A stretch of DNA of 40,738 bases. Source: a virus (taxonomy: Duplodnaviria > Heunggongvirae > Uroviricota > Caudoviricetes). Position 1 is the first letter of the stretch, and each line of letters opens with the position of its first letter. The stretch lies in IMG/VR virus record IMGVR_UViG_640753023_000013; one strand, 5' to 3'. Positions 3,361 through 35,057 of this stretch are shown here, in pieces. A model generated the notes under the pieces. The model did not search any database. It saw only the letters and a list, made by a program, of their open reading frames with translations, and was not told where the DNA came from. The position numbers were made by a program, and so were the translations under genes.

Positions 3361-3388
3361 CCCGCAAAATATTGCGGGCTTTTTTTTA
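3361..3388 (+). terminator. Hairpin plus T-run oriented for + strand transcription, between tailspike and lysis cassette
   Basis: CCCGCAAAATATTGCGGG followed by tttttttt; orientation is opposite to the flanking genes. Confidence 0.4.
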
Positions 3389-6300
3389 ACGTTCTTCCAG
3401 AGACTGAATCCGCTCTTTTATCTTATCCATTTCTCTGCGCTGCCATGCTGCCTCGATATAGAATAAGAGATCAGGTCTGACCCCCCATCTAGATCCTGCT
3501 GGCGTTATTTCAACGCGCTCAATGATGTCTTCCATTACCATCACTGGATTATCATCCTCATCAACAATGATGCTCCCGTCATTATCAGTCAGCGGCATTT
3601 CCCTTTGGCCAGTAATGACGTCATCATATACTGCGGGATAATCGTCATAGCAAAGAAAGGCATAGCGGCATGTTGTGCTTTCTTCTTCCATGAGTCCGTG
3701 AGAAATAAGAACATCACGAAGTTGCTGCGCGATTACACCATGATGTATCCTCGCCCCTTCTTCCCCCTTTATAGCGACAGCGTTCAGCCATTTATAAGCG
3801 ATATACCTGACGTCACCCCAGGCATCCAGCAATGCTTCGTCAGGAGAGACCGGCTCTGTCTTTAATGTTCCGTCACTGGTAACCACAGGATTGGAGCCAA
3901 GATAAACTGTCGAGAACCTGTTTCCCGGACCACCAAGAGCATTTACATTATCAAGATAAGGTTTAACATCTCCGTTCTCAAAAAGATGTTCGAGTGCGTT
4001 ATATACCGCGCGACGTGGAGTACTGCTTCCGGAACCATGCAACGTTATCATTGCACCATCTGCTGAAGACGTTGTTTCACCTCCGCTAACGATTAATCTC
4101 TGAGCGGTAACATCATCAGACGGTACTTTCTTCGCAATAATGGCGTAATTACCCTCAAGTTTGACTTCCGCGCGAACTTGTCCTGATGTACCTGCATGGA
4201 CAGTCAGTGACTGGACGGCAACATCATCTGTGAAATCAACGGGTACAGGAACCGTCCTCACGCCTGACGTCGACATAAAAGTAGGAAGCGTTCTGTTAGG
4301 AGTGGCTCCGTAGACAAAATCCCTTGAAACAAATTCTTCCTGTTTAATTTTCACCCTGAAACAATACAAATCAGCCGGGTGACCATCGTGAACATAAGGA
4401 TATTTTCTGTTGTTATCCCCTATGCTCCATGGGTTTAGAAAGTCTTCCCCACCGAAAATGTAGTACAGCCAGTTGTCTTTGATACAAACTGAACCAACAC
4501 CAACCGCAGAGTTAACTATTCCGCCCTGATAAATCTGATCAGTAACATTAACCCACTCTACATTATCCAGACTCCACTCATTGACGTTAACTCTGGTCAT
4601 AAATGTTCTTGGATAATTTCCTGCATAACGGTTATCAGGTTCTCCTCCTTCCCACTCACCAAATGCGCGCTCACTGCCAAAAATAATCAGCTCATCGCCA
4701 ACTTTGGCAAAAGGAAGGTTTGAGTGATGAACATTATTTGGGAAGCGAAGAGAATTCCATGATGTACCTAAATCAGAGCTTCTGTGCAATGAACTACCGG
4801 GTTGAGTACTTAATGTCCCCCTGGTCGTCAGATACAGAATGCCATCATAATATTTTACACATGGCTCAGATGCATTCGCCTCATATTCTGCAGGTATGCG
4901 TCTGCGAACAAAGCTACCAGGAGAACCGAAAGCATCAGAGAAATAGAGTATCCCAAGCTCGCGTGGACCAATATCACCATTATGGTAGCCAACAGCAAAA
5001 CTGTTATCGCTAATCGTCGCAAAACTGTGAATCTCAGTAACAGGAGTGCTTCCGTCAACAAAAGAAGGAATAGTTCCAAGACTGGTTTTTCTCCATGGTG
5101 ACGAGTGAAATGATGTACCAAAACTCCAGTATCTACCCTCGTTATTCTGATCCACATCCTGGGTATTTTGCGTCGTAACTGTAAAAGTATTTTTATCAAT
5201 AACAGTAGTCACCGTCATATTCCCGGTAACACCTGTAACACCAGAGTTTGAGAAGTTGACAAAATCACCAGCAAATAATCCGTGATCAGTAATGCGAATA
5301 TAAGCGACTTGCTGATTTGCTGCTTTCGTTATACCACCATAAACGCGAAGGCTGCGACTCATTGGGCGATCCCACAACTCTGCAACCTGCAGTTTATTTC
5401 CGCTCACGGTCCGCGTCTCAATTACAGCAAAAAGGCGATTTCTGACAACCCCCATACTCATGCAGTGATAGTTAACTGTGGGATAGTTTTCATGTAAATC
5501 TGTAAGCCATTCCGGCGTTGTCCAGGTCTTCCCGTCATCTCCTGAGCGAACCCATGCAACATGGAGGTTATTTACACCATGGCGGTCTCCAGCCATAAAA
5601 GGCGCATAGATGACATTGTCATATACAAACGTTTTATCCTGCGTCCAGGCGTTGTACCACGGTGTATCTGTAATTTTAAATAACTCTCCCTGGATAAAAT
5701 CTTCAGAAGCATAAAAAAGAGGCTGGCCCGGTATTCTCTCAAATAAAAAACGAGCATTTTTAAATCGACTGACATCCGGAAGAGTTGATACTTTAAAAGT
5801 AAGCCCTAATCCGTCAATTTTATAACCTGGAGATGAGGCTTCAAGGCACGCGCTTATTGCAGTGGAATCGTCATTTATACCATCACCAACAGCTCCAAAA
5901 TCTTTGGGGCTAATAGCATCACGCATTTTATCCTGGAACGTTCGGTACACAGCCCCAGAACCATACTGAATAAACCAACCAAAACCACCAACAACCCCGG
6001 CGATTGCAGCATCGACATAATTACGCATTGAGCGATTATTTACAGCGTCCTGCTCAAATGATGGATCTGCAAGGTTAGAAATTTTGTTTTGCTTTGCATC
6101 GTAATATTTTGCAAGCAAAGATGGTTTCATCAATGCACGTCTGAACCACCCAAAACATTGCTGGATCAGCATCGTCAGGTAGTCAAAGGCATCTTCATGC
6201 ACTTCGGGGAAAAATTTTCCCTGATTGCGAAGGTCTGTCTCCTGCACTACATCAAGCACACGATCTATCGTAATTCGCCATCCAGTAGCAAGCGGAGACG

Positions 6301-6505
6301 GAAGAACCACAGAACCGCCACTATAAGTGCCCGCCCCAGTTACCGTATAACCGGTATCCAGAACCAATTCTGTTACGTTCCCGTTCAGGTCAGACACCTG
6401 AACAACCAGGTCTGATTTTCTGAAAATTCGAAAAGTATACGGAAACGATGTCGTAACGCCGTTACCGGTGTATTCGTTGTGGTCAACTTCGGTTGAGACC
6501 GTCAT
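3386..6505 (-). CDS. Tailspike: N-terminal particle-binding domain, sialidase-like beta-propeller with two Asp-boxes, C-terminal intramolecular chaperone (peptidase S74-like); probable capsule depolymerase
   Basis: Asp-boxes SGDDGKTW and SSDLGTSW; C-terminus resembles the T5 L-shaped-fibre/endosialidase chaperone domain (SDGTLKTEP, FLCYDDY). Confidence 0.8.
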   Translation of the reverse strand: MTVSTEVDHNEYTGNGVTTSFPYTFRIFRKSDLVVQVSDLNGNVTELVLDTGYTVTGAGTYSGGSVVLPSPLATGWRITIDRVLDVVQETDLRNQGKFFPEVHEDAFDYLTMLIQQCFGWFRRALMKPSLLAKYYDAKQNKISNLADPSFEQDAVNNRSMRNYVDAAIAGVVGGFGWFIQYGSGAVYRTFQDKMRDAISPKDFGAVGDGINDDSTAISACLEASSPGYKIDGLGLTFKVSTLPDVSRFKNARFLFERIPGQPLFYASEDFIQGELFKITDTPWYNAWTQDKTFVYDNVIYAPFMAGDRHGVNNLHVAWVRSGDDGKTWTTPEWLTDLHENYPTVNYHCMSMGVVRNRLFAVIETRTVSGNKLQVAELWDRPMSRSLRVYGGITKAANQQVAYIRITDHGLFAGDFVNFSNSGVTGVTGNMTVTTVIDKNTFTVTTQNTQDVDQNNEGRYWSFGTSFHSSPWRKTSLGTIPSFVDGSTPVTEIHSFATISDNSFAVGYHNGDIGPRELGILYFSDAFGSPGSFVRRRIPAEYEANASEPCVKYYDGILYLTTRGTLSTQPGSSLHRSSDLGTSWNSLRFPNNVHHSNLPFAKVGDELIIFGSERAFGEWEGGEPDNRYAGNYPRTFMTRVNVNEWSLDNVEWVNVTDQIYQGGIVNSAVGVGSVCIKDNWLYYIFGGEDFLNPWSIGDNNRKYPYVHDGHPADLYCFRVKIKQEEFVSRDFVYGATPNRTLPTFMSTSGVRTVPVPVDFTDDVAVQSLTVHAGTSGQVRAEVKLEGNYAIIAKKVPSDDVTAQRLIVSGGETTSSADGAMITLHGSGSSTPRRAVYNALEHLFENGDVKPYLDNVNALGGPGNRFSTVYLGSNPVVTSDGTLKTEPVSPDEALLDAWGDVRYIAYKWLNAVAIKGEEGARIHHGVIAQQLRDVLISHGLMEEESTTCRYAFLCYDDYPAVYDDVITGQREMPLTDNDGSIIVDEDDNPVMVMEDIIERVEITPAGSRWGVRPDLLFYIEAAWQRREMDKIKERIQSLEER

Positions 6506-6609
6506 GTTAAATCTCCAGATAGTCGCAGCACCCGTTGCGCCGCATATCTGGTTATTCTATTACCTGGAAAACCACATATGGATAGAAAGGCTGTAAATAC
6601 GAATAGATA

Positions 6610-6624
6610 TTACCTTTCAGGTAA
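6610..6624. promoter_or_regulatory. Operator palindrome TTACC-TTTCA-GGTAA (site 1, perfect)
   Basis: Between tailspike start and the LexA-box gene. Confidence 0.6.
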
Positions 6625-6661
6625 TTTGCAAAACGTGCTGGATAGCAAACAAATTATTTGC

Positions 6662-6681
6662 TACTGTATAAATATACAGTT
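6662..6681. promoter_or_regulatory. LexA (SOS) box
   Basis: TACTGTATAAATATACAGTT, 18/20 match to consensus TACTGTATATATATACAGTA, 20 bp upstream of the ATG at 6701. Confidence 0.8.
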
Positions 6682-6700
6682 ATTGCATGGAGAAGATAAG

Positions 6701-6958
6701 ATGCAGCAGTATCACTATCCACTGGAAGACGGATTTACCGAAAGGATTCACACGCCGGGAGGCGTCAGGTCACTGGTGGAGGGATCGCACTTGATGAAAT
6801 TACTCCGGGATCTCGATAAGGATGGATTTAATGTCGATGGCCCACTTGCCGAACTGACTGCACTGATTAACTACGTCACCAGCTCACAGATGTCTATGCG
6901 GGATCTGCAAACACATCTCGACTATTGTGCCGAACAATTACGAAAACAAACCAGATAA
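6701..6958 (+). CDS. Small antirepressor-related protein (homolog of the C-terminal domain of the downstream BRO-N protein)
   Basis: ATG with GGAGAAG RBS; residues 20-85 align with the C-terminus of the 7274-7969 product (LMxLL, DG, RDxQTH); ORF track start 6578 rejected. Confidence 0.6.
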   Translation: MQQYHYPLEDGFTERIHTPGGVRSLVEGSHLMKLLRDLDKDGFNVDGPLAELTALINYVTSSQMSMRDLQTHLDYCAEQLRKQTR

Positions 6959-7092
6959 GGTTTGCAATTACCAAGTGGAGTGCTTATATTTACCTTTGAG
7001 ATAAATTTACATCGCACTCCTCTTGTGCCATAGTAATCGGGCACTGGCAAAATCCAGTGCCGGGATTGGCGTCCCGGATTACTAAAAGGCGC

Positions 7093-7273: not shown

Positions 7274-7969
7274 ATGACAGCTACAAAAAGCACGTCCATT
7301 TTTTCTTTCGAATCCCAAGCCGATATACGGGTAATCGTCATTAATGGTGAGCCATGGTTTATCGCTTCAGATGTTTGTCGGGCTATAGGCATAGCAAACC
7401 ATCGAGATGCTGTTCGAAAACTTGATGATGATGAGAAGGGCGTCGCTTCAACCGACACCCCTGGCGGTGAGCAAGAATCGATCATCATCTCCGAGTCAGG
7501 CCTCTACACACTGATCCTCCGCTGCCGCGACGCAGTGACACCAGGCACTATCCCCTACCGCTTTCGTAAATGGGTTACAGGTGAGGTTCTTCCTCAGATC
7601 CGCCGCACCGGAAGCTACATTAAAAACTCGCTCCCGCAGGAAGAACGCATAAAGATGGTTGCCGACCAGGTAGCCAACGCCACGGCGTCAGCAGTAATGC
7701 AGGCGATGAAGATAGAGAACAAAACCTACAGCGCCCCGCTGAAGCCCGGCTACCGCAGCCTGATTCACTCGCCGTCTGGTGTTCTCGGCCTGACGGAAAA
7801 CTCACTGCTGATGAATCTGCTGAACCAGTTACAGGAAGACGGGCACGACGTATCGGGCGCGGCGGCGGAGGTGACCACCATGTTCTGCTACATCGTCGGT
7901 GTGAGTAAATGCCTGCGTGATATCCAGACCCACGCGGAATACATCAACGACAAGGCAGGGTTCTTCTGA
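7274..7969 (+). CDS. BRO-N domain antirepressor-type protein
   Basis: N-terminal Bro-N signature (IRVIVINGEPWFIASDVCRAIG, DDDEKG); C-terminal domain shared with the 6701 gene. Confidence 0.8.
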   Translation: MTATKSTSIFSFESQADIRVIVINGEPWFIASDVCRAIGIANHRDAVRKLDDDEKGVASTDTPGGEQESIIISESGLYTLILRCRDAVTPGTIPYRFRKWVTGEVLPQIRRTGSYIKNSLPQEERIKMVADQVANATASAVMQAMKIENKTYSAPLKPGYRSLIHSPSGVLGLTENSLLMNLLNQLQEDGHDVSGAAAEVTTMFCYIVGVSKCLRDIQTHAEYINDKAGFF

Positions 7970-8041
7970 CGGGCGGCGGCACAGGGATGAGCCTTTAAAT
8001 AATTCTGTACAGATTGCAGACTGGGGGTGAATAGCGTACTA

Positions 8042-8056
8042 TTACCTCAAGGGTAA
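8042..8056. promoter_or_regulatory. Operator palindrome TTACC-TCAAG-GGTAA (site 2, perfect), overlapping a candidate promoter (TTGCAG-N17-TACTAT)
   Basis: 60 bp upstream of the moron gene at 8116. Confidence 0.55.
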
Positions 8057-8115
8057 GAAAGCATTTTTAATCTTCCCTTCAAAACGCGTCCTGTAGCCAA
8101 ACATGGGAGGACGAA

Positions 8116-8748
8116 ATGAGAACAAATACAACAAGAAAAGCGATGCCATACATTATCCCAGAAGCAGATTTCGATAGAAAACTGAACATGTCTGAGAAGA
8201 ACACTAGTCACACCGAAAGCTACTTAGCGAAAGGTGTGGTTGATTTCGTTCTTCCGGGATTCACAACACCTTATGGTTATCGCCTTGTAAAATCTTGTAA
8301 TGGCGATCATTACAGAATGATTACTACCAGCGATACTCCAGAAACGGTGTATGCGGTTAAGTTAATCTTTCGGGAAGATATCGTCGAAGCCAAAAGAACA
8401 TGTACGCAGATCATGGTATGGCGTACGCCTAATGTTATTCATGACCGTGCTGTTCATGGTTTGCCTCAGATTTTTTTTCAGTTCTTCCTAGAGCAATATG
8501 CGATCGTTGTATCTGATGAGCAACAAACAATCGATGGGAGAAGATTCTGGGAAAGAATGATTTCTTGGGCTATAAACACCCCAGGATATAATGTATACGT
8601 TTCAGATGGCTCTGAAGAAGATAGACCTCTTAGCTTCATGACATCATGGGATGATTTCTATAGCCAGTGGGCTGATTTCTGTTGGGGCAGTGATAAAGAT
8701 GTGCATACCCACAGACTACTGGTTATAAGCAAAGATAAACTGCATTAA
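8116..8748 (+). CDS. Hypothetical protein, AT-rich moron with own terminator; no recognisable domain
   Basis: 210 aa, GGGAGG RBS, AT-rich composition unlike neighbours. Confidence 0.65.
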   Translation: MRTNTTRKAMPYIIPEADFDRKLNMSEKNTSHTESYLAKGVVDFVLPGFTTPYGYRLVKSCNGDHYRMITTSDTPETVYAVKLIFREDIVEAKRTCTQIMVWRTPNVIHDRAVHGLPQIFFQFFLEQYAIVVSDEQQTIDGRRFWERMISWAINTPGYNVYVSDGSEEDRPLSFMTSWDDFYSQWADFCWGSDKDVHTHRLLVISKDKLH

Positions 8749-8752
8749 TAGA

Positions 8753-8774
8753 AGCCCGCAGCGCGGGCTTTTTT
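8753..8774 (+). terminator. Rho-independent terminator
   Basis: AGCCCGC-agc-GCGGGCT followed by tttttt. Confidence 0.7.
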
Positions 8775-8846
8775 GTGGACGAAACAAAAGTCAGTGCTAC
8801 ACTCATTGTCGCCACATTGAGGTGGCTTATAGATGGAAATTTCACA

Positions 8847-9008
8847 ATGAAAAAAGCATTTGCTGCACTGTTCGTTTTGTTGTCTCTGGTAGCTTCAACT
8901 CAGGCCTTTGCCGGTCGTTGTCAGCACGACAGCGACACTGCTGCTGACGGCTCCCGCTGCGGTGGGCGTTCTGCGGATTCCCGCCCGGGTGGCGGTGGCA
9001 TTCGTTAA
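8847..9008 (+). CDS. Small secreted peptide (signal peptide plus about 30-aa mature part with two Cys)
   Basis: MKKAFAALFVLLSLVASTQAFA signal peptide; 53 codons. Confidence 0.4.
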   Translation: MKKAFAALFVLLSLVASTQAFAGRCQHDSDTAADGSRCGGRSADSRPGGGGIR

Positions 9009-9030
9009 AAACAAGGCCGCGAAAGCGGCC
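9003..9030 (-). terminator. Rho-independent terminator for the minus-strand lipoprotein gene
   Basis: Hairpin GGCCGC-gaaa-GCGGCC at 9015-9030 with a U-run on the minus strand. Confidence 0.55.
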
Positions 9031-9039
9031 TGTGACATG

Positions 9040-9420
9040 TCACGCAACGCAATTATTACCGCGCCATGTAACATTTTTAATAATCTTATCAGCACCAAAC
9101 TCAACGTAAACAGAGCAACTGAAATGGAGTGTATAACCGCCATCAGTTGTTGCGTATGTGTTTGAATATATAGTATTACCAATTAGATTAGACGTAGTAT
9201 TATACGTTGTGGTTTGTGGTACGTTATAACTACCAGAGCTTGAGTAAACATACACTCTGTTTCCATCTGGAGATGTAAGCTCTCCCTGAGGATACCCCCA
9301 CTGCTGAACCATTGCGTCTATACTCTGCCCGCGCCACGTAAGCATATTTCTTTCAAACTGTGCAGCTGACTGGCATCCAACGAGAAGCATAAATCCAAAA
9401 ATCAAAAATACTTTTCTCAT
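9040..9420 (-). CDS. Prophage lipoprotein (candidate superinfection-exclusion or conversion protein)
   Basis: Signal peptide with lipobox LLVGC, Thr/Ser/Tyr-rich mature part; ATG at 9420 (track start 9456 rejected). Confidence 0.6.
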   Translation of the reverse strand: MRKVFLIFGFMLLVGCQSAAQFERNMLTWRGQSIDAMVQQWGYPQGELTSPDGNRVYVYSSSGSYNVPQTTTYNTTSNLIGNTIYSNTYATTDGGYTLHFSCSVYVEFGADKIIKNVTWRGNNCVA

Positions 9421-9639
9421 AATTACCCCTATCATGGAAAAACAGCACCAATCCACAAATTAACTAGTTATTTTATTATTCTTCCGAACAATACAATTCC
9501 GAATACTACAAAGCCGAACCATGCCGCTGCACGCAACAGAGATTCCAATTGAAACCCATTTTTATCAAAATGTATGAATAGCATAAAAACGCTGCACATA
9601 TTAGTACAATAAAAGTTATTTGAACCATCATATCTCCTT

Positions 9640-12114
9640 TTATTGCGGAGTGACATCCTGTGGTCGCCACCAGTATGTCTGGTTAAACTCTTTCTTCGAA
9701 CGTTGCTCCATTTTACGCAAATAGCCTGGTGAAAAATACTCCTGCATCTGGTTAAAGATCATGTGATCGAGAGCCGCCTTCAAGTACCAGAGATTCGCAC
9801 CAGGCATCAAACCTTTCCCCAGCTTCACCAGATCACCACCAGTCTGCTCACTCTTCCCTTCCACAGCATTTAACGGTATGCCCTGAGCAATCTTCACTAC
9901 GTCATCAACCAGACCAGCTACCGGGCCAAGCATCGACGCCAGCGCGCCGCTTCCGTACCTAGTGTGATCTGACAATAAAAAGTCACCGTAAAGGCCAAGA
10001 CCACCACCTTTCAGTAGAGCACCAAGCCAGAATTTTGCGGCATCTTCTCCTGTCATCTCTCGAGGATTACGACCAGACGCAAGGTCGTTAAGTTGCTGCG
10101 ACAAAGCGCCAAGAATGGTCGTACTGGCAATAAACGTCGCAATATATGCCGCACGCCCACCAGCAGACGGCATACCCATAGCGCGTGACCAGTGACGCAT
10201 AACAACCGAGATAGGGAACGATTTAAACAGGAAAACACTTCTCGTTAATTCACCTTTCCATGTTCCACGCTGAATACCAGAACCGGTTATCAGTTGCTCA
10301 CGTGCTCCCGGTGTAATAACAGCCATATCAACTTCTTCAGTTACGGCACCGAGCAGTTTACGCATTGCCTCAAATTTCACGCGTTCAGGCTCACCAAGAT
10401 GTTTAACTGCTGAATCAGGGATACGCATAATGCTTTCCGGTGTCAGCATCGTATTATTACCGTTCCCCCAGTCCTCCTGTTTCGCCAGCTTCCATACGCT
10501 CCAGTCTGTGTCAGTAATCCCTTTGCTTTTCAGGATACGAAAATCAGAGTCATCGAGGCTACGAAGGTCTGGTGTCCGTGACACTACTTCTCCCAGGCTT
10601 CCCATCATGGTTACGCCATAGGCGCGCTTGTGCGCATCTGACCATGCTGTAAGCCCACTGGCACGCATTACCGCCGTTGCCGCCCAACGAGACACTGACG
10701 GCCCCATATTATCCATCGCCCAGCGGTTAACGCTGCCAAGTAGAGATTCCATCGCCAGACCAGCGCGGCGCGCCCGCGCAAGTTCTGTACGGTTCGTTGG
10801 GTCCATAGCTTCAAGCTGGTTGCGGAATAACTGGTTCATTGGAAGGTTGGTAACCTTCGCAGACAGATACATGGTTCCAAGATCAGAGAACGATGACAGC
10901 AACGCGGATCCGAGTCTGCTGGCAACCAGCCAGTTGCGGATATTGTCAGACCATCGCGCGATGTGCGGATTCGCTACAGGCTGTGTCTTTCCGGAAATAA
11001 AGTTGTACAGATTCTCTGTGTTGTTCGCCAGCCGCTCGACTTTACCGGTTTTACTCGGGTTAGCTGTTGCCGTTTCTGCCTTCACCTGATCAAGAAGAGA
11101 GCGGAAAACATGATCGGGGTTTGGGCCATATGTTTCCACCAGTGCAATATCTTTACTGATACCTTCCAGGTGACCGACCATGATTTCCCATAGAGAGCGA
11201 TCGCCATAAAGTTGCTGATATTGCAGATAGGAATCTGCATCTTTGAAATGTATCTGTCGTGATGCATTACCACGGTTAGCACGTGCGCCGGAAATTCGCA
11301 TTCCGGTATCAGTAAGCTTATTCAGCCCACCAGTAGCGATCGTGTTATAAGCCTCTCCAAGAAATGAAGACAACTCGGCATCGTTCATCAGTTGTCCATC
11401 GGCTCGGATATAATATTTGCGATCCAGCTTACCTATAACATCGCTAACCCACTTATCCTTTGATACTGCCCCAACCTTTTCCATAGAATGATGTTGAGGG
11501 ATCCCCCAGTTTTCGAGATAGCCAATGTCCCCACCAGCATCATTAAACCGGCGGCGCAGCAGCTCTGTAACTTCTCTCCACGCCTTAGCACCGTTTCTTG
11601 CTTTAGCATTGCCAGTATTTTGCCCCCGCATTTCATATACCAGGTCACGTACGCCCGCTTCATCTTCAAACAGACCAAAAAAGCGAGGATCAACTGCTTC
11701 GAATGCCTCCTGCAATTGACTCAATGCATAATCACGGGTGGCTTTTGTTCTGGATTCAACAGAGAGGAAATTAGATTTACCGTCTGCATTAAAAGCTATA
11801 GTACGGTTAAGAGCGCCAAGTTTCCCATCAGCCCCTTGATAGCTATTGATAAATTTATCCAATCTCTGACGCGCGGCTATAGTGAGAGCCACACGACGTT
11901 TCTTTAATGCCGCTTCTCGCTGTAATTCTTCAGATGCCAATTGTGCTGCTCGATATAGCCGCTCTGATTCGGAAAGTTGTCGCCACGACATAGGGTCATC
12001 ACGAGCAATGGAGCGCATATTTCGATAAATGCGGTCTTCAATGTTCTGTATTTCTCGCGCCGTTAACATGCGCTGCGCCGCCTGCTGAACCGCTTGTATA
12101 CATTCCTGTCTCAT
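9640..12114 (-). CDS. Large internal virion (ejection) protein, 824 aa
   Basis: Size and position in the tail/ejection block; no motif recognised. Confidence 0.55.
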   Translation of the reverse strand: MRQECIQAVQQAAQRMLTAREIQNIEDRIYRNMRSIARDDPMSWRQLSESERLYRAAQLASEELQREAALKKRRVALTIAARQRLDKFINSYQGADGKLGALNRTIAFNADGKSNFLSVESRTKATRDYALSQLQEAFEAVDPRFFGLFEDEAGVRDLVYEMRGQNTGNAKARNGAKAWREVTELLRRRFNDAGGDIGYLENWGIPQHHSMEKVGAVSKDKWVSDVIGKLDRKYYIRADGQLMNDAELSSFLGEAYNTIATGGLNKLTDTGMRISGARANRGNASRQIHFKDADSYLQYQQLYGDRSLWEIMVGHLEGISKDIALVETYGPNPDHVFRSLLDQVKAETATANPSKTGKVERLANNTENLYNFISGKTQPVANPHIARWSDNIRNWLVASRLGSALLSSFSDLGTMYLSAKVTNLPMNQLFRNQLEAMDPTNRTELARARRAGLAMESLLGSVNRWAMDNMGPSVSRWAATAVMRASGLTAWSDAHKRAYGVTMMGSLGEVVSRTPDLRSLDDSDFRILKSKGITDTDWSVWKLAKQEDWGNGNNTMLTPESIMRIPDSAVKHLGEPERVKFEAMRKLLGAVTEEVDMAVITPGAREQLITGSGIQRGTWKGELTRSVFLFKSFPISVVMRHWSRAMGMPSAGGRAAYIATFIASTTILGALSQQLNDLASGRNPREMTGEDAAKFWLGALLKGGGLGLYGDFLLSDHTRYGSGALASMLGPVAGLVDDVVKIAQGIPLNAVEGKSEQTGGDLVKLGKGLMPGANLWYLKAALDHMIFNQMQEYFSPGYLRKMEQRSKKEFNQTYWWRPQDVTPQ

Positions 12115-12119
12115 TTAAT

Positions 12120-13922
12120 TTAACCTCTCAAGAAACACGCCACAGCGACATCAAACAGGCTGGAATCCTGTATTGCCTGCTCACTTTCCCTGTTCGCTTC
12201 ATCCAGTGCTTCACGCGCACTGCGCGATTGTGGATTACCATCATCATCCAGCACGGTGATTATCATGTCAGGTGATTCAAGCAGCGAGTCTTCAGCTATG
12301 CGCAAATCAATATCTCCTGCCTGATCTGACATCATTTTTTGTTCTGCCTGTTGCAATATTTTATCAGGCTCAAAAGGAGCTACTTCGTCTGGCGTCCTGA
12401 CCTCTGCTGTTTTATAGAATGAAACAGCCTGAGCATTAAGTTCACTTTCTGCCTGCTGTCTCCGAGCCAGTTCTGCTCGAGCTTCAAAAAACCGACCGCC
12501 AGGCTCATGCGGTGCCAACGCGTTACGAGAAAATTCCAGGCGTTCTTGTGCCTGCCGGATTCGTTGGTCAATATCGCGAAGTCTGGCCTGTTTATCTGAT
12601 CGAGCACGAGATAAAGCCTTACCGCTACCGGCTGGATCTTCTGCAAGAATTTGTGCGCGCTGTTCAGTGAGATTTTCAATAATTCGTTGGCTATTAGCGA
12701 TTTCAGACTGGTAAACCTGTCTATCGCCACGCGGCAAAAGCTGCGCGGCCTGTTCTTCAAGCAACCGATTTTCTATAGCGCGCGCCGTTACTCCATCATC
12801 TACAGATGACAGAGCCTCATTAACTGCCTGAGACAGCAGACTCTTGCGTCCAGGAATTTCACTGAAAGATGCAGACTCAACAATGCTGGCAACGTCTACA
12901 GGTCTCCCCTGGCTAACATCAGACATGGCTTTTCGCAGAGCCTGAATGTGCGAATTACGCGAAAGCACGTTGATCGGCACGCCGGGAGCAATATCAATTT
13001 CAGCATGATGAGCGGCATTCGCCGCCAGTGCAGCATCGATATCAACTGGTGAAAAATTTGGTGCGCTTGTAGACTCGCCGCGAGAGTTAATAAATCTGCC
13101 GACACCACCAAACGCCACCCCAAGAACAGCATCAATAGCAATTGCCTGTCGATCCAACACATCATACTGGTTAGCCATTTCGCTATAGCCACCATCACGA
13201 AGCGTTTTTGCAGTAAGCCCACGCTGTGCCATACCGAACGCAATATTTGTACCTGCGGCATAGGCAATATCTGGCGTTGCACGTACTGCTGTTGCTGCGG
13301 CGCGTCGCACTGAACTTTCACCCGTCCGCGCAAGCTGAGCCGCCACACCTTCCGCCAGCGCACCACCAGCACGTAACCAGAGGCTCATAGGGATCAGTGC
13401 TCCGGCACCAGCAGTAATACCCTGCACTAATCCCGCTTCCTGCGCCGTCCTGAAATCAACACCCTGTGCTGTAAGCCGTTCAAACTCAGAAAAACCCTGT
13501 AGAGAAGTTACCGCCGCAGCACCTCCGACCGGACCACCGAGCGTTGTACCGACAACAGCCTGCCCGCCCATATCGAACACCCCATAAAGGACCTGCCCGG
13601 CGGTTCCGGTTGTCGCGGCATCAGGCGTCAGCCGCTTAACCTGCTGCTCTGCTAGTTTTCTCTGCTCAGCAATGTATGAAACTGAAGTGTCATTGATCGA
13701 GGTGTTTTCGTTAACAAACTGAGCAATCGGGGATACGATTTTATCCATCCCTGCCCATAGCAACTGATCTGGCTTTGCCACCAGCCCGGAGTACAAACCA
13801 GACAATGCCGCTCCTACAGCATTGTCGAAAAAACCAACATCGCTGTTAAAGCCAGCTGGATTTGATGCTGCTTCGTCAAGCTGCTGATTCTGGTTTACTG
13901 GATTAAGGCCAAAGTAACTCAT
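12120..13922 (-). CDS. Internal virion (ejection) protein, 600 aa
   Basis: Synteny; Ala/Gly-rich central region. Confidence 0.55.
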   Translation of the reverse strand: MSYFGLNPVNQNQQLDEAASNPAGFNSDVGFFDNAVGAALSGLYSGLVAKPDQLLWAGMDKIVSPIAQFVNENTSINDTSVSYIAEQRKLAEQQVKRLTPDAATTGTAGQVLYGVFDMGGQAVVGTTLGGPVGGAAAVTSLQGFSEFERLTAQGVDFRTAQEAGLVQGITAGAGALIPMSLWLRAGGALAEGVAAQLARTGESSVRRAAATAVRATPDIAYAAGTNIAFGMAQRGLTAKTLRDGGYSEMANQYDVLDRQAIAIDAVLGVAFGGVGRFINSRGESTSAPNFSPVDIDAALAANAAHHAEIDIAPGVPINVLSRNSHIQALRKAMSDVSQGRPVDVASIVESASFSEIPGRKSLLSQAVNEALSSVDDGVTARAIENRLLEEQAAQLLPRGDRQVYQSEIANSQRIIENLTEQRAQILAEDPAGSGKALSRARSDKQARLRDIDQRIRQAQERLEFSRNALAPHEPGGRFFEARAELARRQQAESELNAQAVSFYKTAEVRTPDEVAPFEPDKILQQAEQKMMSDQAGDIDLRIAEDSLLESPDMIITVLDDDGNPQSRSAREALDEANRESEQAIQDSSLFDVAVACFLRG

Positions 13923-16432
13923 TGCGGAATATCTCCGGAGAATCTCTGACGCTTCTGTGTCAGATTAAGAACAACGGGAGAACCATCATCTTTCAGCAGA
14001 TAACCAGTACCAAGTTTCACCAGGTACTGACTATCGCCGTAACTTTGCAAACCATACTGACCAGGCGGTGTTTTTATCCCGGAGCCGACAACTTGTTCAT
14101 TCCAAGCCTGATTAACCTGCTTATCGAATTGCTCTGCAGACATTCCCCACGGCAAAAGGACATTCCCCATTCCGTTATAGTCATGCACACCACCTGTAGC
14201 TACGTTAACAGCCTGTTTCCAGACATCATTGTCAATTTCGCCTGATACCACGCCTTTTTTCGCCATCACACCAGCGTAATAATCCTTTGCGATCTCGTAT
14301 GCCATTGATGCGCCCTGAGCGTCACCAGCAAATGCATCCTTCACCATGTCAGAAAACTCAAGGCGAAGATCAGCATCTTTAGGCATCGGAATACCTTTCG
14401 CATCATCAGTACCTTTACGAGCCGCCGCGCCAGCAAGAATTGTCTGCGCAGCGGTTTCAGGAGACACGGAAACATCCGGATTAAACCAGTTTTTTTCTGC
14501 CAAAATACCACCAGGCTTATCCATCAGTATCCCAGCAACGGCAGCAGATGGAGCGTTGGCACTGATCTGCTGTAGTGCTGACATATACACCTGCCCACCA
14601 CCAGTGCTCTGCCTGATGGTATCGAGATATGCTGCCTGTTGGGAAACTGGAGCATCACGAAAGAAAACACCGATCTGATTGGCCTCGTCTTTGGAAAAGA
14701 ACGTCAGTGGAGTGCCATATGACTTAGCAAGGTCACTGACCTGAGCGGCACGCAAGGCAACGCTCTGTCCAAAGTTATCCTTATTGCTCATGTCGATAGG
14801 CTTTGCCTGTCCGGAGGCAAGAGAGAACTGCACAGGATCCGACTGCCGCTGCTTTATCACCTGATTTGCAGCCGAAACAACGTTGTCATAAAGAGTTGCG
14901 CGTGCCGCATACCCCTCCCCTGTATCACCAGTATCCGGGCGTAATTGCTCAACATATGCTGTAATGCTGCTTGTCGGCATGTTGCGGAAAGAGCCTATAT
15001 ACTGTCCGGCGATCTGCGTATTCTTAAACTCGGTATATCGCAGGTTTCCTTCTCTGACTCCATAAGCTGCAATAAAATCATCCTCACCAGGTGGGTTAGG
15101 AAATTCAATGCCACGCATATACGCAGCCGTCGCATCGCGAACCCGGCTGTCGAGCATCGTTTTATATTCAGCCTGCTGTTGTCTGGCTAGTGCATCAGTC
15201 TGTCGCAACACGCTGGCCTGATCTGATTCACTTAAAGCATCGAACCAGGCTACACCGGTATAACGTTTATTTTTTGTCGGTAGCTGAGAAAGCCCCAGCG
15301 CAGCACTAACACCTGCAGTTAACTGCTGATCACTGTATGGCTGGCTACCGTTTTCATGATGGATAATGGCTGCACAAAGCGCCTTCAGGGTATCAGGATT
15401 TGATGCATCGAGAGGCTCATCAGCAGAAACGCCAAGTTGTTCGCACACTGCTTTGATATACGACATAGTGTCATTTTTATCAGTAGGCGGTGCCCAGCGA
15501 TTAATTATCTCGCTGACGGTATCAATACCCTGCCGCTGATACGACATCAGGTTCCGCCCTAATGCACGAATACCGTGTTCAGGGGTTTCGAATTTGGCAA
15601 AGCGACCATCATCACCAGTCTGCCCAACCCACGGATTAGTTTTGCTGTATTCAAGATTGCCGGGGTTATTGTTGCGTATACCGCGGGTACGATCGGAAGA
15701 GCCACTATCTGCTACAGCACGGCGAGAACCAGCAGCAGTATCGCTTAACTCGCCGTTTTGCTGTCTTACCTGAAGATAGTTTGCTCCAATAGCATTTTGA
15801 GCAGTTGCTTTTGCTGTTGCTTCTTTAAACTCGATTTTCTTGGCCTGGATTTGCTCGTCACTCCAGCCATGTGCAATGCCGTAATCCTCAATTTGCTGGA
15901 AAGTTTGCTTATTAGCCAATACGTATGCGGCGTTGTCGCCATACAATGCTGCGGCATTTTTACCATTGTTCAGCAGCGTAGCCTGAAACTGGCCTTCTTC
16001 GTAGGCATTTATTTGCCCTATCTCGTGCCGCCCGGCCTGCGTAGTGAACTGAATGCGCTGCTGCTGCGCCTGCTGCATGAAAGCATTACGAGCCTGTTCA
16101 TCCGGCAGCGACATAGCCAGTTGTTCGACCTGAGCATCAAACTTCTGCGTATACTCCTGACCTTTTCCAATAGCATTTTTCCCTTTCAGGTTAAGCAAAC
16201 CTGTTTCAGGGTTATTCAGCAGATCGCTGCTTATCTGGCTTAAGCTAAGAGAAGCATCCTGAGCCATAGCAACATTCGCACGCTGTTTTGCCTGCGCAAT
16301 AATACCTGCATATTGCTCTGCAACATCGCCAAGTACATCACCGACATTTGGTGTCTGAAACGATGAGAATCCCTGCGTCGAAATCCCTCTGCTCTGAACC
16401 TGACGGCCCGATGTTGTTGGTACAACTGGCAT
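13919..16432 (-). CDS. Large internal virion protein, 837 aa, with conserved RGIRNNNPGNL motif segment
   Basis: Synteny; overlaps neighbours by 4 nt. Confidence 0.55.
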   Translation of the reverse strand: MPVVPTTSGRQVQSRGISTQGFSSFQTPNVGDVLGDVAEQYAGIIAQAKQRANVAMAQDASLSLSQISSDLLNNPETGLLNLKGKNAIGKGQEYTQKFDAQVEQLAMSLPDEQARNAFMQQAQQQRIQFTTQAGRHEIGQINAYEEGQFQATLLNNGKNAAALYGDNAAYVLANKQTFQQIEDYGIAHGWSDEQIQAKKIEFKEATAKATAQNAIGANYLQVRQQNGELSDTAAGSRRAVADSGSSDRTRGIRNNNPGNLEYSKTNPWVGQTGDDGRFAKFETPEHGIRALGRNLMSYQRQGIDTVSEIINRWAPPTDKNDTMSYIKAVCEQLGVSADEPLDASNPDTLKALCAAIIHHENGSQPYSDQQLTAGVSAALGLSQLPTKNKRYTGVAWFDALSESDQASVLRQTDALARQQQAEYKTMLDSRVRDATAAYMRGIEFPNPPGEDDFIAAYGVREGNLRYTEFKNTQIAGQYIGSFRNMPTSSITAYVEQLRPDTGDTGEGYAARATLYDNVVSAANQVIKQRQSDPVQFSLASGQAKPIDMSNKDNFGQSVALRAAQVSDLAKSYGTPLTFFSKDEANQIGVFFRDAPVSQQAAYLDTIRQSTGGGQVYMSALQQISANAPSAAVAGILMDKPGGILAEKNWFNPDVSVSPETAAQTILAGAAARKGTDDAKGIPMPKDADLRLEFSDMVKDAFAGDAQGASMAYEIAKDYYAGVMAKKGVVSGEIDNDVWKQAVNVATGGVHDYNGMGNVLLPWGMSAEQFDKQVNQAWNEQVVGSGIKTPPGQYGLQSYGDSQYLVKLGTGYLLKDDGSPVVLNLTQKRQRFSGDIPQ

Positions 16433-16444: not shown

Positions 16445-16984
16445 TTATCGACCGGTTGGAGTGCCAACAGCAGCAGAAATCGGCGCAGCCTTCTGAGAGA
16501 ACGGGCTCCACGTTCCGCCGCCCATCTGGTATGCACCGTATGCTTTTAGTGGTGCCGTTAACAAAGTGCTGGTCATCGATGATTTAGCAGCCGACTGAGC
16601 AGCAGCCCCCTGTGCCTGAGCATTCATTCCCTGAACCTGATACCCATATGCCTCACGCTGAGCATTATTCACTGTCGTTAACGCATCAAGAGTGCCGAAC
16701 TGAGCATTATCCGCAAAAACGTCAAGAGCTGTTCCGCTACTTAATTCCGCACCGGTAGCCCCCATAGTGGCCGCCGCAGTGCCTGAGCGTTGACGCATTT
16801 CACGACGACGCTGATCCGCTTCAATATTCCCACGATTGATTGAATCCTGTGCCTGAGCTTCAGCAATTTCAGCATTCCGATCAGCTATGGCTGACTGGTA
16901 TTTTGCCTGCTTGCTCTGGCTGTACATTGACGCGGCTGTGGATGCCACTGTGACGGCAACCAAAGCGATGGCTGGGTTACACAT
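16445..16984 (-). CDS. Virion internal protein (T7 gp14-like by position)
   Basis: 179 aa with N-terminal hydrophobic segment. Confidence 0.5.
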   Translation of the reverse strand: MCNPAIALVAVTVASTAASMYSQSKQAKYQSAIADRNAEIAEAQAQDSINRGNIEADQRRREMRQRSGTAAATMGATGAELSSGTALDVFADNAQFGTLDALTTVNNAQREAYGYQVQGMNAQAQGAAAQSAAKSSMTSTLLTAPLKAYGAYQMGGGTWSPFSQKAAPISAAVGTPTGR

Positions 16985-17448
16985 TATTTTCTCTCCATGT
17001 GAAATCTGTGGAAATTAAGACCAAGAGCACCATAAGGCGCGGCTTCTTCAAGCCTGAATCCAAGCCAGTGCAGCCATGCTTTGGCAACATGGTTTCGCTC
17101 GTCGACGTAGTTTTCCAGGCGCGGATAAACTGCCAGCATCTGCTGCAATACAGGGCGGCAGTGGCGAAGAAATGTCTTCTGATATTTTTCAATACGGCTG
17201 GTTCCTACCAGCCAGGGCGTACCATTGCCACCGATCATTGACGCCGGAGATACGCCAAACATGGTTACCAGTTCTCCGTTCGCGAACCCTGACCAGGCCA
17301 TAGTCGCAGTGCGAAGACCAACACGCAGCGCATCTTCGGTAGTCATCAGCGATACCGCATACAGTTCGTCAATATCAGCCTGACGAACATCCGGCAAAAT
17401 CATCTGAAGATGCTCTTCGGTAGCGGGAATAATTCGAACATCGATCAT
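16984..17448 (-). CDS. Virion-associated protein (T7 gp13-like by position)
   Basis: 154 aa, overlapping start/stop with both neighbours. Confidence 0.5.
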   Translation of the reverse strand: MIDVRIIPATEEHLQMILPDVRQADIDELYAVSLMTTEDALRVGLRTATMAWSGFANGELVTMFGVSPASMIGGNGTPWLVGTSRIEKYQKTFLRHCRPVLQQMLAVYPRLENYVDERNHVAKAWLHWLGFRLEEAAPYGALGLNFHRFHMERK

Positions 17449-26327: not shown

Positions 26328-26708
26328 ATGAACGACCAGCAAATCGAAAAAGAAATTGTTGAGAAAGGCAAAACGGCACCGCGAATCACTCCTCAGCACA
26401 TCGAAGACGTGATTAAAAGCGAGCATTACTTTACTGCTTATGATGGACGTAATGGTGCAATTTCCAGCAACGAATATTGTGGCAGAGAAAAACCAGAAGA
26501 AGGTGATCGTGATTTATCACCATTGAAGTTGCTCACTTTCTGCGTACTGGTGCTGAAGAATGGCTTCACCGTCACCGGAGAGAGCGCCTGTGCAAGCCCG
26601 GAAAATTTTGATGCAGAAATTGGTCGGAAGATTGCCCGGCAGAATGCTGTAAACAAAATCTGGATGCTTGAAGGTTACTTGCTGAAGCAGAAGTTAAGCG
26701 AGCAATAA
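26328..26708 (+). CDS. Phage protein of the gp49/gene-66 type (unknown function)
   Basis: 126 aa on the opposite strand to its neighbours; family assignment from recalled similarity only. Confidence 0.55.
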   Translation: MNDQQIEKEIVEKGKTAPRITPQHIEDVIKSEHYFTAYDGRNGAISSNEYCGREKPEEGDRDLSPLKLLTFCVLVLKNGFTVTGESACASPENFDAEIGRKIARQNAVNKIWMLEGYLLKQKLSEQ

Positions 26709-26712: not shown

Positions 26713-26724
26713 GTGACATGTCAC
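26713..26724. repeat. Palindrome GTGACATGTCAC (copy 2 of 3)
   Basis: Perfect 12-bp palindrome 5 nt after the stop of the 26328 gene. Confidence 0.7.
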
Positions 26725-26798: not shown

Positions 26799-28274
26799 TT
26801 AAGCATAGGGATCGTAATCTGTGATGGCCTTGCCTTGCTGGTTCTGCTGCCCGGGAATTCGCAGACGCTTCGACACAGGGAACGCAAACGTCAGCAGTAG
26901 CGCATCGCCTTTACCCGGCGAACGCCCAAGTCGCTCTTTGATATCTTCCTTCGGTTCGATAACGATTTTACCGTCCACGCGAACTTTGTACTCTGCCGCC
27001 GACAGGTCGTCCGCTGTTTCCTGGTCATCCAGCATGCCGCCCAGCCTCAGCCATGTCTTGCATGAGTTGAACATCTCCCCACGCTTGTTAAGCATCTGCG
27101 GGTCAGTAGACGCGCCACCGAACGGAACAAGTTGCCATGTACGCCCCCAACCGTCACCGATTGACTTCAGACCGGTACCGTAACCGAAGTCGATGAACAC
27201 CGCGTCAGCCTGGTACTGGTCTTCAAAGTCAGCGATACGCTTCGCCATAATCAGATCGTCGGTGGTCTTGTTGCCAGTCCACAGCACCTTACTGTGTAGC
27301 CCCTGCCGCAGGTATATCACAGCGTCATCAACGCCGGAGTATGCCGGGTCAACGCCGATTATCACCGGAGAATGTGCAACCTGCGCAGCGGTTACCACCC
27401 GTTTCATTGCCTCGTCAGTAAGACCGGTAGGGATAAACTGCAATTCAGATGCATCAGGGAATATGCCACGCACACGGATTTTAACGAAGTCGCTGTCTTC
27501 CCCGTAGTCATCAACCCATTTCTGCAACTGCTGTTTGTTGGTACCTTCCACCGTCCGACTGTCAATCTGCGCAGTTTTCCAGCGGTGTTTATACTTGCGG
27601 AAACATTCACGGAAACGTCCGGTATTACGCGTCGGGTTTCCGAACGCCACCCAGATAATCTCAGTGTCTTCGTCCGTTAGCGCACCCTCGGCAACTTCCC
27701 ACACCAGATCCGCAATGTTCGACGCTTCATCGAATACCACGATGATGCGTTTGCGCTCGTTGTGTAGTCCGGCGAATGCCTCAGTGTTGTGCTCAGACCA
27801 GGGTATTGCGTCAGCCCGCCACCGCTTGTCGTGCCCTGGGTCATTGCTGTACATCGCGGTAGCAGTACAGGTAAACCAGTCTTTCGTGATAGCAAGGTTC
27901 GACCACTTGATAATTTCCGGCCAGGTCTTCGTTCGTAGCTGGTTGTCGGTGTTGGCGGTCACCACGACCTTACAATCCTCGCAAGTGGACATGCCCCAGT
28001 TGATCAGCATTGAGATGAATGCGGATTTACCAATACCGTGACCAGAAGCGCGTGCCAGCATAAGCGGCTGATAGCGCGTCTCTGGATTCTGCAGGTGATC
28101 ACGTATCTCTCGGAACGCATCAGCCTGCCATTGACGTGGGCCGGTAGCATGTGCCAGTTCAGTCCCCTCTTCCCCCCACGGGAACGCATAGAGGGCATAG
28201 CCAAGCGGATCGTGAGTGAACCCTGCAATATCCTCGATCAACTGCTCTTCAGGAGATAACGCTGTATCTGTCAC
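26799..28274 (-). CDS. Terminase large subunit
   Basis: Walker A-like GHGIGKS, 491 aa, GTG start overlapping terminase small stop. Confidence 0.85.
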   Translation of the reverse strand: MTDTALSPEEQLIEDIAGFTHDPLGYALYAFPWGEEGTELAHATGPRQWQADAFREIRDHLQNPETRYQPLMLARASGHGIGKSAFISMLINWGMSTCEDCKVVVTANTDNQLRTKTWPEIIKWSNLAITKDWFTCTATAMYSNDPGHDKRWRADAIPWSEHNTEAFAGLHNERKRIIVVFDEASNIADLVWEVAEGALTDEDTEIIWVAFGNPTRNTGRFRECFRKYKHRWKTAQIDSRTVEGTNKQQLQKWVDDYGEDSDFVKIRVRGIFPDASELQFIPTGLTDEAMKRVVTAAQVAHSPVIIGVDPAYSGVDDAVIYLRQGLHSKVLWTGNKTTDDLIMAKRIADFEDQYQADAVFIDFGYGTGLKSIGDGWGRTWQLVPFGGASTDPQMLNKRGEMFNSCKTWLRLGGMLDDQETADDLSAAEYKVRVDGKIVIEPKEDIKERLGRSPGKGDALLLTFAFPVSKRLRIPGQQNQQGKAITDYDPYA

Positions 28275-28867
28275 TGATTACCATCCTGACGTTCTTTGAG
28301 TCGCTTCCTGGCTGCTGCTATGCGATCAGCAATTGTCACTTTCACATTAACATCCAGGCGTTCTTTGAATGCGTTGACGTCGACGTGCTTACCAATCAGT
28401 TCGAGGTTCTTCACCTTGTCAGGCCATTTAATTTTTTTGAGGATTGTCTCTATCGAATCCTCGTTCATGTTCATGATGGTCGATGACAGATCAAAGCCAC
28501 TAAGCGTAGTGCGCCAGATTTTCGGCCACTCGCGGATTGGCTTAAGGCTCCCATCGTCGTTGAGGATGTCGATCACGTCCATCTGGTCGATCTCCACCAG
28601 GCGCATGAGAACGTAATCAGCACTGACGCGCATTCGTTTGTTGCGCTCCTCCATCAACTCGGCAATCCGTTTTTGAATGCGTTCATCGCGCATCATGACA
28701 CTGGCTTTAACTGCCGCTGTATTTGGGGAGAATCCTGCGTTAATCGCTGCCTGAGTCTGGTTTTCAGGCGTTTTGATGTATGACTGGCAATAAGCCTCCT
28801 GCATTGCTGTGAGCGGCTTAAATTGCGTTGATTTGCGTTTATAGGTTTTAGGTTCAGCAGGCATCAT
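28271..28867 (-). CDS. Terminase small subunit (start revised from the TTG at 28945)
   Basis: ATG at 28867/28864 with GGTGG RBS; region 28868-28945 holds an operator palindrome and a terminator. Confidence 0.55.
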   Translation of the reverse strand: MMPAEPKTYKRKSTQFKPLTAMQEAYCQSYIKTPENQTQAAINAGFSPNTAAVKASVMMRDERIQKRIAELMEERNKRMRVSADYVLMRLVEIDQMDVIDILNDDGSLKPIREWPKIWRTTLSGFDLSSTIMNMNEDSIETILKKIKWPDKVKNLELIGKHVDVNAFKERLDVNVKVTIADRIAAARKRLKERQDGNQ

Positions 28868-28941: not shown

Positions 28942-29154
28942 TCAAAGTCCATCAAATTCATCGTAAAAACTCTCGTCAAGATACCCTTCCCATTTACCGC
29001 GAATGAAAATTACATCCTCGCCGCAAGGGTGCTGACTGTCGATAACTATATCCCTCCTGGCGCAACCATACTTATGCATGAGAAATTTAACCTCTTTCGG
29101 AAAATTTGCTGAGTTATCTCTCATATCTTCAAGGTCGTAGCGTATTTTTGGCAT
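28942..29154 (-). CDS. Hypothetical protein
   Basis: ATG at 29154 with GAAGG RBS (track starts at a GTG at 29175). Confidence 0.45.
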   Translation of the reverse strand: MPKIRYDLEDMRDNSANFPKEVKFLMHKYGCARRDIVIDSQHPCGEDVIFIRGKWEGYLDESFYDEFDGL

Positions 29155-29163
29155 AACACCTTC

Positions 29164-29175
29164 GTGACATGTCAC
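29164..29175. repeat. Palindrome GTGACATGTCAC (copy 3 of 3)
   Basis: Perfect 12-bp palindrome at the junction of the 29172-29519 and 28942-29154 genes. Confidence 0.7.
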
Positions 29176-35028: not shown

Positions 35029-35057
35029 TTGACACCAAACCAAATAAGCATAATTAT
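35029..35057 (+). promoter_or_regulatory. Candidate sigma70 early-left promoter (TTGACA, 16-17 bp spacer, TAATTA/AATTAT)
   Basis: Consensus -35; -10 candidates directly followed by operator site 12. Confidence 0.4.

Follow-up and report, generated by a model that had tools for sequence, protein, structure and literature searches.

Is a gene with the anatomy of a phage moron necessarily expressed in the lysogen, or can its wiring reserve it for lytic growth? This question is raised by an AT-rich single gene in the 40,738-nt virus record IMGVR_UViG_640753023_000013 (Duplodnaviria; Heunggongvirae; Uroviricota; Caudoviricetes), the whole of which is referred to here as the window. The gene lies in a prophage of the epsilon15/phiV10 type (Uetakevirus), and positions 7700-9040 are 100% identical to Escherichia coli APEC O1 (NC_008563.1). 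An earlier note made from the sequence alone had described the gene as an orphan cargo with its own promoter, operator and terminator, and as a candidate for a superinfection-exclusion, defense or host-modulation function whose expression in the lysogen depends on the operator. The reading that we favor, with a probability of roughly one half, is that the gene is a repressor-gated cargo encoding a protein with a GNAT (acyl-CoA N-acyltransferase)-like fold, which is off in the lysogen and acts as a lytic-phase takeover or counter-defense factor that uses or binds acyl-coenzyme A (acyl-CoA).

The inverted repeat at the cargo promoter (Table 1) is significant because its motif recurs in the phage, a short palindrome alone being at chance level. 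With at most one mismatch allowed, TTACC-N5-GGTAA was found at 13 sites in the window compared with 0.65 expected, and shuffled sequences never contained more than three. The 15-bp sites start at positions 6610, 6990, 8042, 25716, 28867, 28885, 31934, 31996, 33898, 34235, 34283, 34995, and 35057. Four of them surround the repressor gene (34235, 34283, 34995, and 35057), two stand in tandem directly before TerS in the late operon (28867 and 28885), one precedes ant (6990), one precedes a small gene beside the tail spike (6610), and the others lie in intergenic spaces. The longer form TACTATTACC-N5-GGTAA is present in 5 copies (0.05 expected), and the 10-mer TACTATTACC is also found exactly at the TerS promoter (28904-28895, minus strand).

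The ant, cargo, and early rightward promoters share an identical geometry of -35 hexamer, 17-nt spacer, -10 hexamer, and operator. The TerS promoter is of the extended -10 type (TGgTACTAT) and is followed by its two operators. In the epsilon15 RefSeq record (NC_004775), the sequence ATTACC-N5-GGTAAT is annotated as 'protein_bind: repressor' at analogous places, namely upstream of TerS, around the repressor gene, and next to the tail-fiber gene. The 194-aa repressor-like protein of the window (34353-34937) is 99.5% identical to the phiV10/ZX5 repressor, and in ZX5 the overexpressed repressor abolishes transcription of the lytic genes, with no operator defined in that study (PMC9782041). Apart from that study, a literature search for a defined phiV10 or epsilon15 operator returned nothing specific and no binding experiment. 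Based on the copy number and placement of the motif, we infer that 8042-8056 is a copy of the phage's immunity operator, bound by the repressor in a repressing position over the -10/+1 region. The repressor thus seems to touch the late, ant, and cargo promoters directly, in addition to the early ones. With a putative immunity operator covering -10/+1, the cargo gene is most likely kept silent during lysogeny and turned on when the phage infects or is induced. As a separate observation, the operator consensus TTACCT-N3-AGGTAA includes the core ACCT-N3-AGGT, the palindrome of the E. coli MqsA antitoxin, and one family member (P0153) is fused to an MqsA N-terminal domain; this may be a coincidence.

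Comparison with sister phages showed which parts of the locus are mobile. TL-2011b, phiv142-3, and phiV10 align with the window by blastn at 93-98% identity up to position 8056 and again from 8753, with phiV10 lacking 7981-8985 entirely. The backbone homology breaks at 8056 and resumes at 8753, and therefore the swapped unit is 8057-8752, whereas the promoter-operator and the terminator are parts of the backbone. The slot contains a small open reading frame (ORF) and a YafO-family toxin in TL-2011b and two small ORFs in phiv142-3. Among 5426 complete E. coli genomes, part of the 7700-9040 region is present in 503 and this cargo at ≥99% identity in 93, while flank-carrying genomes without the cargo have a YafO toxin, DUF4760, DUF2335, various hypothetical proteins, or an empty slot. 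The slot is thus a polymorphic cargo hot spot in an immI-like accessory region. A second variable slot (9045-9627, G+C content 40.3%) immediately adjoins on the right, with opposite orientation. Its ORF at 9040-9456 on the minus strand (9040-9420 in RefSeq) encodes a phrog_3716 protein, and in sister phages this slot is occupied by a 46-aa membrane protein (phiV10) or by Ant, Arc, and two more genes (TL-2011b).

Most of the anatomy described in the earlier note was borne out. The gene map places the cargo between the tail spike and ant on one side and the virion-structural and internal-virion genes on the other, in agreement with the proposed moron position between ejection-type genes and the tailspike. 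The cassette is compositionally distinct, as had been stated, with a G+C content of 40.8-40.9% for the ORF and the cassette (40.9% for 8057-8752) compared with 48.9 ± 3.2% in the window, which is within the lowest 1.1% of 696-bp segments. An operator palindrome does overlap the promoter, since TTACC-N5-GGTAA shares a T with the -10 hexamer. The claim that the gene has its own promoter, operator, and terminator needs to be amended: all three elements exist, but in Uetakeviruses they belong to the slot and are common to other cargos. Like a moron, the gene is an extra one, present or absent between genes that adjoin in related phages, and in LLS and the Serratia phages a similar promoter and inverted-repeat element accompanies the family gene.

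The local signals of the cassette were inspected one by one. The terminator hairpin follows a double stop and has a minimum free energy of -17 kcal/mol (z = -2.9 relative to shuffles), and a simple consensus terminator scan of the window did not list the 8750-8772 hairpin. The Shine-Dalgarno (SD) sequence and the ATG start are kept in the homologues compared from other lineages. Two further repeats were considered as regulatory sites. The perfect 10-bp palindrome TCTGTACAGA (8004-8013) was rejected as an operator because it is at chance level, with 34 such palindromes in the window versus about 40 expected. The inverted repeat AATAG-cgta-CTATT (8030-8043) has arms of only 5 bp, no repeats elsewhere, and no conservation in LLS. 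A (C/G)TCC element complementary to part of the SD sequence lies 8-17 nt upstream of it in the window (~8085-8111) and in 18 other lineages, i.e., nearly all. A hairpin in the 5' untranslated region (UTR) that would sequester the SD sequence was rejected: in none of 19 lineages did the pairing probability of the SD sequence exceed that obtained with dinucleotide-shuffled upstream regions (empirical p = 0.18-0.91). Because SD pairing was at the level of the shuffled controls in all 19 lineages, translational control is not claimed.

Homologues of the cargo gene were found in a wide range of genetic settings. In sister Uetakeviruses, a homologue of ~83% identity occupies the same slot; in lambdoid phages, including LLS of E. 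coli K-12, it lies between the spanins (Rz) and cos/terminase; in Serratia siphovirus prophages, between the tail chaperone and the tape measure, beside P22-type Ant and Arc; and in Citrobacter P1-like elements, between baseplate genes and sit. The gene is thus a promiscuous single-gene cargo. Distant relatives are encoded by Agrobacterium phage Atu_ph07 and by viral contigs of 143-235 kb, and their presence in large phages fits a role during lytic growth. A repeat of the TTACC-N5-GGTAA type lies 66-112 nt upstream of the start codon in at least five lineages, compared with an expectation of ~0.002 per 130-nt interval, as extrapolated from shuffles of the window. It was seen in the window, in the 83%-identity class (L160/L166, one mismatch), in L167 (perfect), in Serratia (one mismatch, inverted relative to the -10 hexamer), and in LLS and Enterobacter lambdoids (perfect arms, different spacer); the loci concerned are L135 (LLS), L167, L160/L166, L175/L176, and L004-L006. 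The simplest reading of this distribution would be that the promoter-operator was carried along as the cassette moved between unrelated backbones; in such recipients, expression of the gene would be constitutive.

The predicted gene proved to be real, with an SD sequence, an ATG start, and a conserved protein family, and this family contradicts its description as an orphan. The product aligned end to end with phrog_1349, a phage family of unknown function (E = 3e-113), its residues 1-210 covering all 210 positions of the profile. A word-indexed search revealed 63 close clusters, all from Enterobacterales and all unnamed, with 37-100% identity and 25 invariant residues, and an exhaustive profile search returned 918 representatives at 50% clustering (E ≤ 1e-3), 272 of them with E ≤ 1e-10. 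Over 99 distant members, the residues N29, Y79, W102, D134, W145, and I204 are at least 90% conserved. Sequence searches of Pfam, NCBIfam, PADLOC, and the PDB gave no informative match for the protein or for the profiles and members of the 99 relatives, and in PADLOC-DB 2.0 neither the cargo nor any of its four neighbors had a match at E ≤ 1. Homology to a structural or housekeeping protein, which the earlier note had named as evidence against its proposal, was not found in the Pfam, NCBIfam, and PDB sequence searches, and literature searches on the family and on DUF5397 returned nothing specific. Rare fusions carry an MqsA N-terminal domain (P0153) or a C-terminal DUF5397. The DUF5397 form (P0143/P0216) is a distant 270-aa E. 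coli paralogue that occurs on 217 contigs under no other name than 'DUF5397 family protein'.

Structure prediction gave this unnamed family a remote but recognizable fold. AlphaFold models were obtained from a 35-sequence alignment (predicted local distance difference test score, pLDDT, 79; predicted template-modeling score, pTM, 0.75) and from a 99-sequence alignment (pLDDT 89, pTM 0.82), with the same order of secondary-structure elements; all fold searches were performed with the first model. The top 50 Foldseek matches in the PDB were all of GNAT type (E = 3e-3 to 4e-2), and the closest solved GNATs included NatD/Naa40 (4ua3), AAC(2')-Ia (5us1), Hat1, GNA1, and the GNAT-like domain of ICL2. 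In BFVD, the top matches were uncharacterized ~190-aa phage proteins, including one of Agrobacterium phage Atu_ph07 (E = 1e-9, TM score ~0.7), followed by viral proteins named 'Acyl-CoA N-acyltransferase' and 'NAT_SF'. The predicted model is a soluble alpha/beta protein without a membrane segment and contains the GNAT core fold, onto which individual elements were mapped by eye (Table 1), a mapping that is itself interpretive. No curated GNAT family matched the protein or the 99 relatives by sequence profile, even at E ≤ 10. Consistent results across two methods and three libraries point to a divergent, remote GNAT-like fold.

The gene map around the cargo was built from PHROG and Pfam searches (Table 1) and shows several features in its own right. 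The small gene at 6578-6958 (RefSeq start 6701), adjoining the tail spike, is homologous to the C-terminal part of Ant; both it and ant match phrog_450 and phrog_15539, and it looks like a partial duplication of ant. A perfect 12-bp palindrome, GTGACATGTCAC, is present in three exact copies (9032-9043, 26713-26724, and 29164-29175), far above chance for an exact 12-mer. All copies lie at junctions of gene modules: beside the bidirectional terminator at 9014-9031, just past the stop codon of the ORF at 26328-26708, and at the junction of 28942-29175 and 29172-29519 upstream of TerS. The gene at 16984-17448 (minus strand) is, by synteny and length, a homologue of gp13 of epsilon15. For gp13, which is an internal virion protein, a RefSeq note gives an HHpred match to 3fbu, a GNAT acetyltransferase; by this analogy, its product would be a second, unrelated GNAT-like protein in the phage.

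Table 1. Positions of the cargo gene, its control signals, mapped protein elements, and neighboring genes
Feature	Position	Strand	Remarks
Operator-type inverted repeat TTACC-TCAAG-GGTAA	8042-8056		Perfect 5-bp arms; copy of epsilon15-type repressor-binding motif; backbone homology ends at 8056
-35-like hexamer TTGCAG of slot promoter	8014-8019	+	Slot backbone; 17-nt spacer to TACTAT
-10-like hexamer TACTAT	8037-8042	+	Final T doubles as first base of operator
Cargo promoter TTGCAG-17-TACTAT	operator 8042		Last T of -10 = first T of operator
ant promoter TTGCAA-17-TATATT	6962-6990, operator 6990		Last T of -10 = first T of operator
Early rightward operon promoter TTGACA-17-AATTAT	~35030-35057, operator 35057		Last T of -10 = first T of operator
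Exchangeable cargo unit (5' UTR + coding sequence)	8057-8752	+	blastn breakpoints vs TL-2011b, phiv142-3, phiV10
Shine-Dalgarno GGGAGGA	8105-8111	+	4 nt from ATG
Coding sequence, 210 aa, APECO1_RS13995 / WP_001260052.1	8116..8748	+	RefSeq 'hypothetical protein'; ATG start; phrog_1349 family; GNAT-like fold (predicted)
Intrinsic terminator	8750-8775 (hairpin 8750-8772)	+	10-bp G+C-rich stem, 3-nt loop, T-run; slot backbone
beta4, TQIMVWR	residues 97-103		Mapped by eye
CoA loop, AVHGLP	residues 112-117		Mapped by eye; AVxGLA in wider family consensus
beta5, IVVSD	residues 130-134		Mapped by eye
alpha4, GRRFWERMI	residues 141-149		Mapped by eye
Tail spike (RefSeq: endosialidase-domain protein)	3389-6505 (side entry 3386-6505)	-	PHROG/Pfam, RefSeq
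ant, Bro-N antirepressor	7274-7969	+	PHROG/Pfam
Small signal-peptide protein	8847-9008	+	PHROG/Pfam
Virion structural protein	9643-12114	-	PHROG/Pfam
Virion structural protein with transglycosylase region	13922-16432	-	PHROG/Pfam
Internal virion protein	16448-16984	-	PHROG/Pfam
TerL	26802-28274	-	PHROG/Pfam
TerS	28274-28867	-	PHROG/Pfam
Two-helix-turn-helix repressor-like protein, 194 aa	34353-34937	+	PHROG/Pfam

From the gene and its family, the predicted fold, the polymorphism of the slot, and the number and positions of the operator copies, we infer the following scheme of repressor occupancy, expression timing, enzymatic activity, and target. The slot would supply a sigma-70-type promoter, one repressor operator over -10/+1, and an intrinsic terminator. 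Repressor made by the prophage would occupy the operator during lysogeny and keep the cargo off or very low. Upon fresh infection or inactivation of the repressor (by Ant or induction), the cargo would be transcribed together with ant and the early genes, with transcription stopping at the terminator. The GNAT-like protein would then most likely acylate a component of the host or of a rival phage, or at least bind an acyl-CoA ligand. Its role would lie in conflict or takeover during the lytic phase, not in lysogenic conversion.

As the main rival reading, the same locus could be a classic moron that is expressed in the lysogen and provides superinfection exclusion, defense, or host modulation, which we regard as possible but doubtful. 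Besides the moron-like anatomy and foreign composition, this reading draws on the YafO toxin modules and other small accessory genes that fill the slot in sister phages, and on the homologues at typical moron sites in the lambdoid (Rz/terminase) and Serratia (tail chaperone/tape measure) phages. Several observations also weigh against a gene confined to the lytic phase. A chromosomal homologue in Xenorhabdus lies between ppc and metF with phage genes absent nearby, and another is located in an Hrp type III secretion system island beside a PIN/Phd pair; such stand-alone copies suggest that the protein is tolerated, and perhaps useful, outside lytic growth. In LLS, an 84%-identical homologue follows TACTATTACC-N5-GGTAA (42053-42067), but no repressor homologue and no other perfect site were found in the LLS genome (42.9 kb), an operator without a cognate repressor, and the gene is presumably constitutive in LLS lysogens. 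In addition, the slot promoter matches the consensus at only 8 of 12 positions, below the threshold of the consensus scan. However, the operator of the present cargo covers -10/+1 in the same way as those of ant and the early operon, two promoters that a lysogen has to keep off; no PADLOC defense model was matched; and the model has no membrane segment, unlike many exclusion proteins. Because the operator appears to be the prophage's own multi-copy immunity operator over -10/+1, a classic moron or superinfection-exclusion gene that is active in the lysogen is less likely in this phage.

The enzymatic part of the repressor-gated scheme has to be weighed against a non-catalytic GNAT-like protein that would serve as an acyl-CoA sensor or a stoichiometric inhibitory scaffold without acyl transfer. 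By-eye inspection of motif A (Q/R-x-x-G-x-G/A, beta4-alpha3) may speak against catalysis, as G115 is kept but A112 and P117 are atypical, making the CoA loop non-canonical, and W145 takes the position of the catalytic Tyr of many GNATs; nor is there a sequence-profile link to catalytic GNAT families. Nonetheless, the ≥90% conserved D134, Y79, N29, and W102 lie at the ends of core strands, an arrangement typical of an active site, and the top structural neighbors are mostly active enzymes, so we consider a purely non-catalytic protein unlikely. A GNAT-type toxin of a toxin-antitoxin or abortive-infection system (TacT-, AtaT-, or KacT-like) that acetylates aminoacyl-tRNA appears highly improbable. 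The alternation of the slot with a YafO toxin module, the homologue beside the PIN/Phd pair, and the member fused to an MqsA N-terminal domain hint at such a function, but the cassette has no antitoxin-sized ORF upstream or downstream (8057-8115 is only 59 nt), no adjacent antitoxin gene of the ribbon-helix-helix/DUF1778 type was found in the cassette or in any context examined, and the protein has no sequence match to GNAT-toxin families and, by eye, carries W145 at the catalytic Tyr position. The gene is single in nearly every context examined, the sole same-family neighbors being tandem paralogues in one distant lineage (L137, 851-2148; L138, 4186-5480; hhalign probability 100%). With no partner gene in the contexts examined, the toxin-antitoxin reading was rejected. 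Finally, the annotation as a mere 'hypothetical protein' might suggest a chance ORF or decaying remnant, a notion that we practically dismiss: it is refuted by conservation of the whole protein across many genera (identity from 100% down to 37%, invariant residues), and the conserved SD sequence and start, the confident fold prediction, and 93 near-identical E. coli copies also contradict it.

The repressor-gated cargo is therefore a plausible phage-host conflict gene. Extending this reading to the whole family is more speculative. Its at least 900 clusters might represent an unrecognized class of single-protein GNAT-fold conflict effectors that disarm host defense, following the logic of AcrVA5, or cripple rival phages. 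They would be delivered as an immediate-early, repressor-gated cassette with a traveling promoter-operator, and an epsilon15-type prophage resident in the same cell could even control a lambdoid copy in trans; we put this forward tentatively. If the proposed wiring is correct, about 1.7% of complete E. coli genomes (93/5426) and several genera of Enterobacterales with close homologues would hold a repressor-gated acyl-transferase-like accessory gene, which would be a tractable candidate for a new counter-defense or defense activity. The slot would act as a natural 'expression socket' with a fixed promoter-operator and terminator and interchangeable cargo (YafO, DUF4760, DUF2335, and others) and could be mined for further conflict genes. 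Moron-like anatomy would then not need to imply expression in the lysogen, as the wiring at this locus points to the lytic phase. Current concepts stand, and what the case offers is a concrete lead that can be tested, together with an improved annotation for a large family so far called 'hypothetical'.

The morons of lambda and HK97 and the immI-sieA region of P22, located between the ejection genes and the tailspike, are known cargo hot spots. The present locus resembles them in its single extra gene of foreign composition, with a promoter upstream, a terminator downstream, and alternative cargos in sister phages. Like P22 immI, the cargo also lies next to an antirepressor gene and has tailspike and virion-internal genes on its two sides, and we take the region to be an analogue of immI. 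The locus differs from morons in that its regulatory elements (promoter, operator, and terminator) are part of the slot and not of the inserted gene, and with an immunity operator on the cargo promoter, expression in the lysogen, the hallmark of morons, would not be expected. The operators of the epsilon15 repressor have an identical motif and share the placement upstream of TerS, around the repressor gene, and next to the tail-fiber region; epsilon15 lacks ant and the cargo slot, whereas the E. coli phages add two operator-bearing promoters (ant and cargo). AcrVA5 is an anti-CRISPR GNAT enzyme that acetylates Cas12a, and acr-aca operons have a strong early promoter that is shut off by a helix-turn-helix repressor. 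As these systems are commonly described, they share with the cargo a small GNAT-fold phage accessory protein, a variable locus, and an inverted-repeat operator over the promoter that would allow an early burst followed by repression, but here the repressor would be the phage immunity repressor and not a dedicated Aca protein. The toxins TacT, AtaT, and KacT have the GNAT fold in common with the cargo protein and are among its structural neighbors, although the cargo stands alone, without an antitoxin partner or sequence match. Within the GNAT superfamily, the protein is set apart by the lack of sequence-profile similarity, an extra beta-hairpin, and the non-canonical CoA loop, its activity being predicted. 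The cargo is thus uncharacterized but of known kinds, both as a GNAT-fold protein and as a hot-spot phage cargo, and its regulatory twist is the wiring to the immunity operator.

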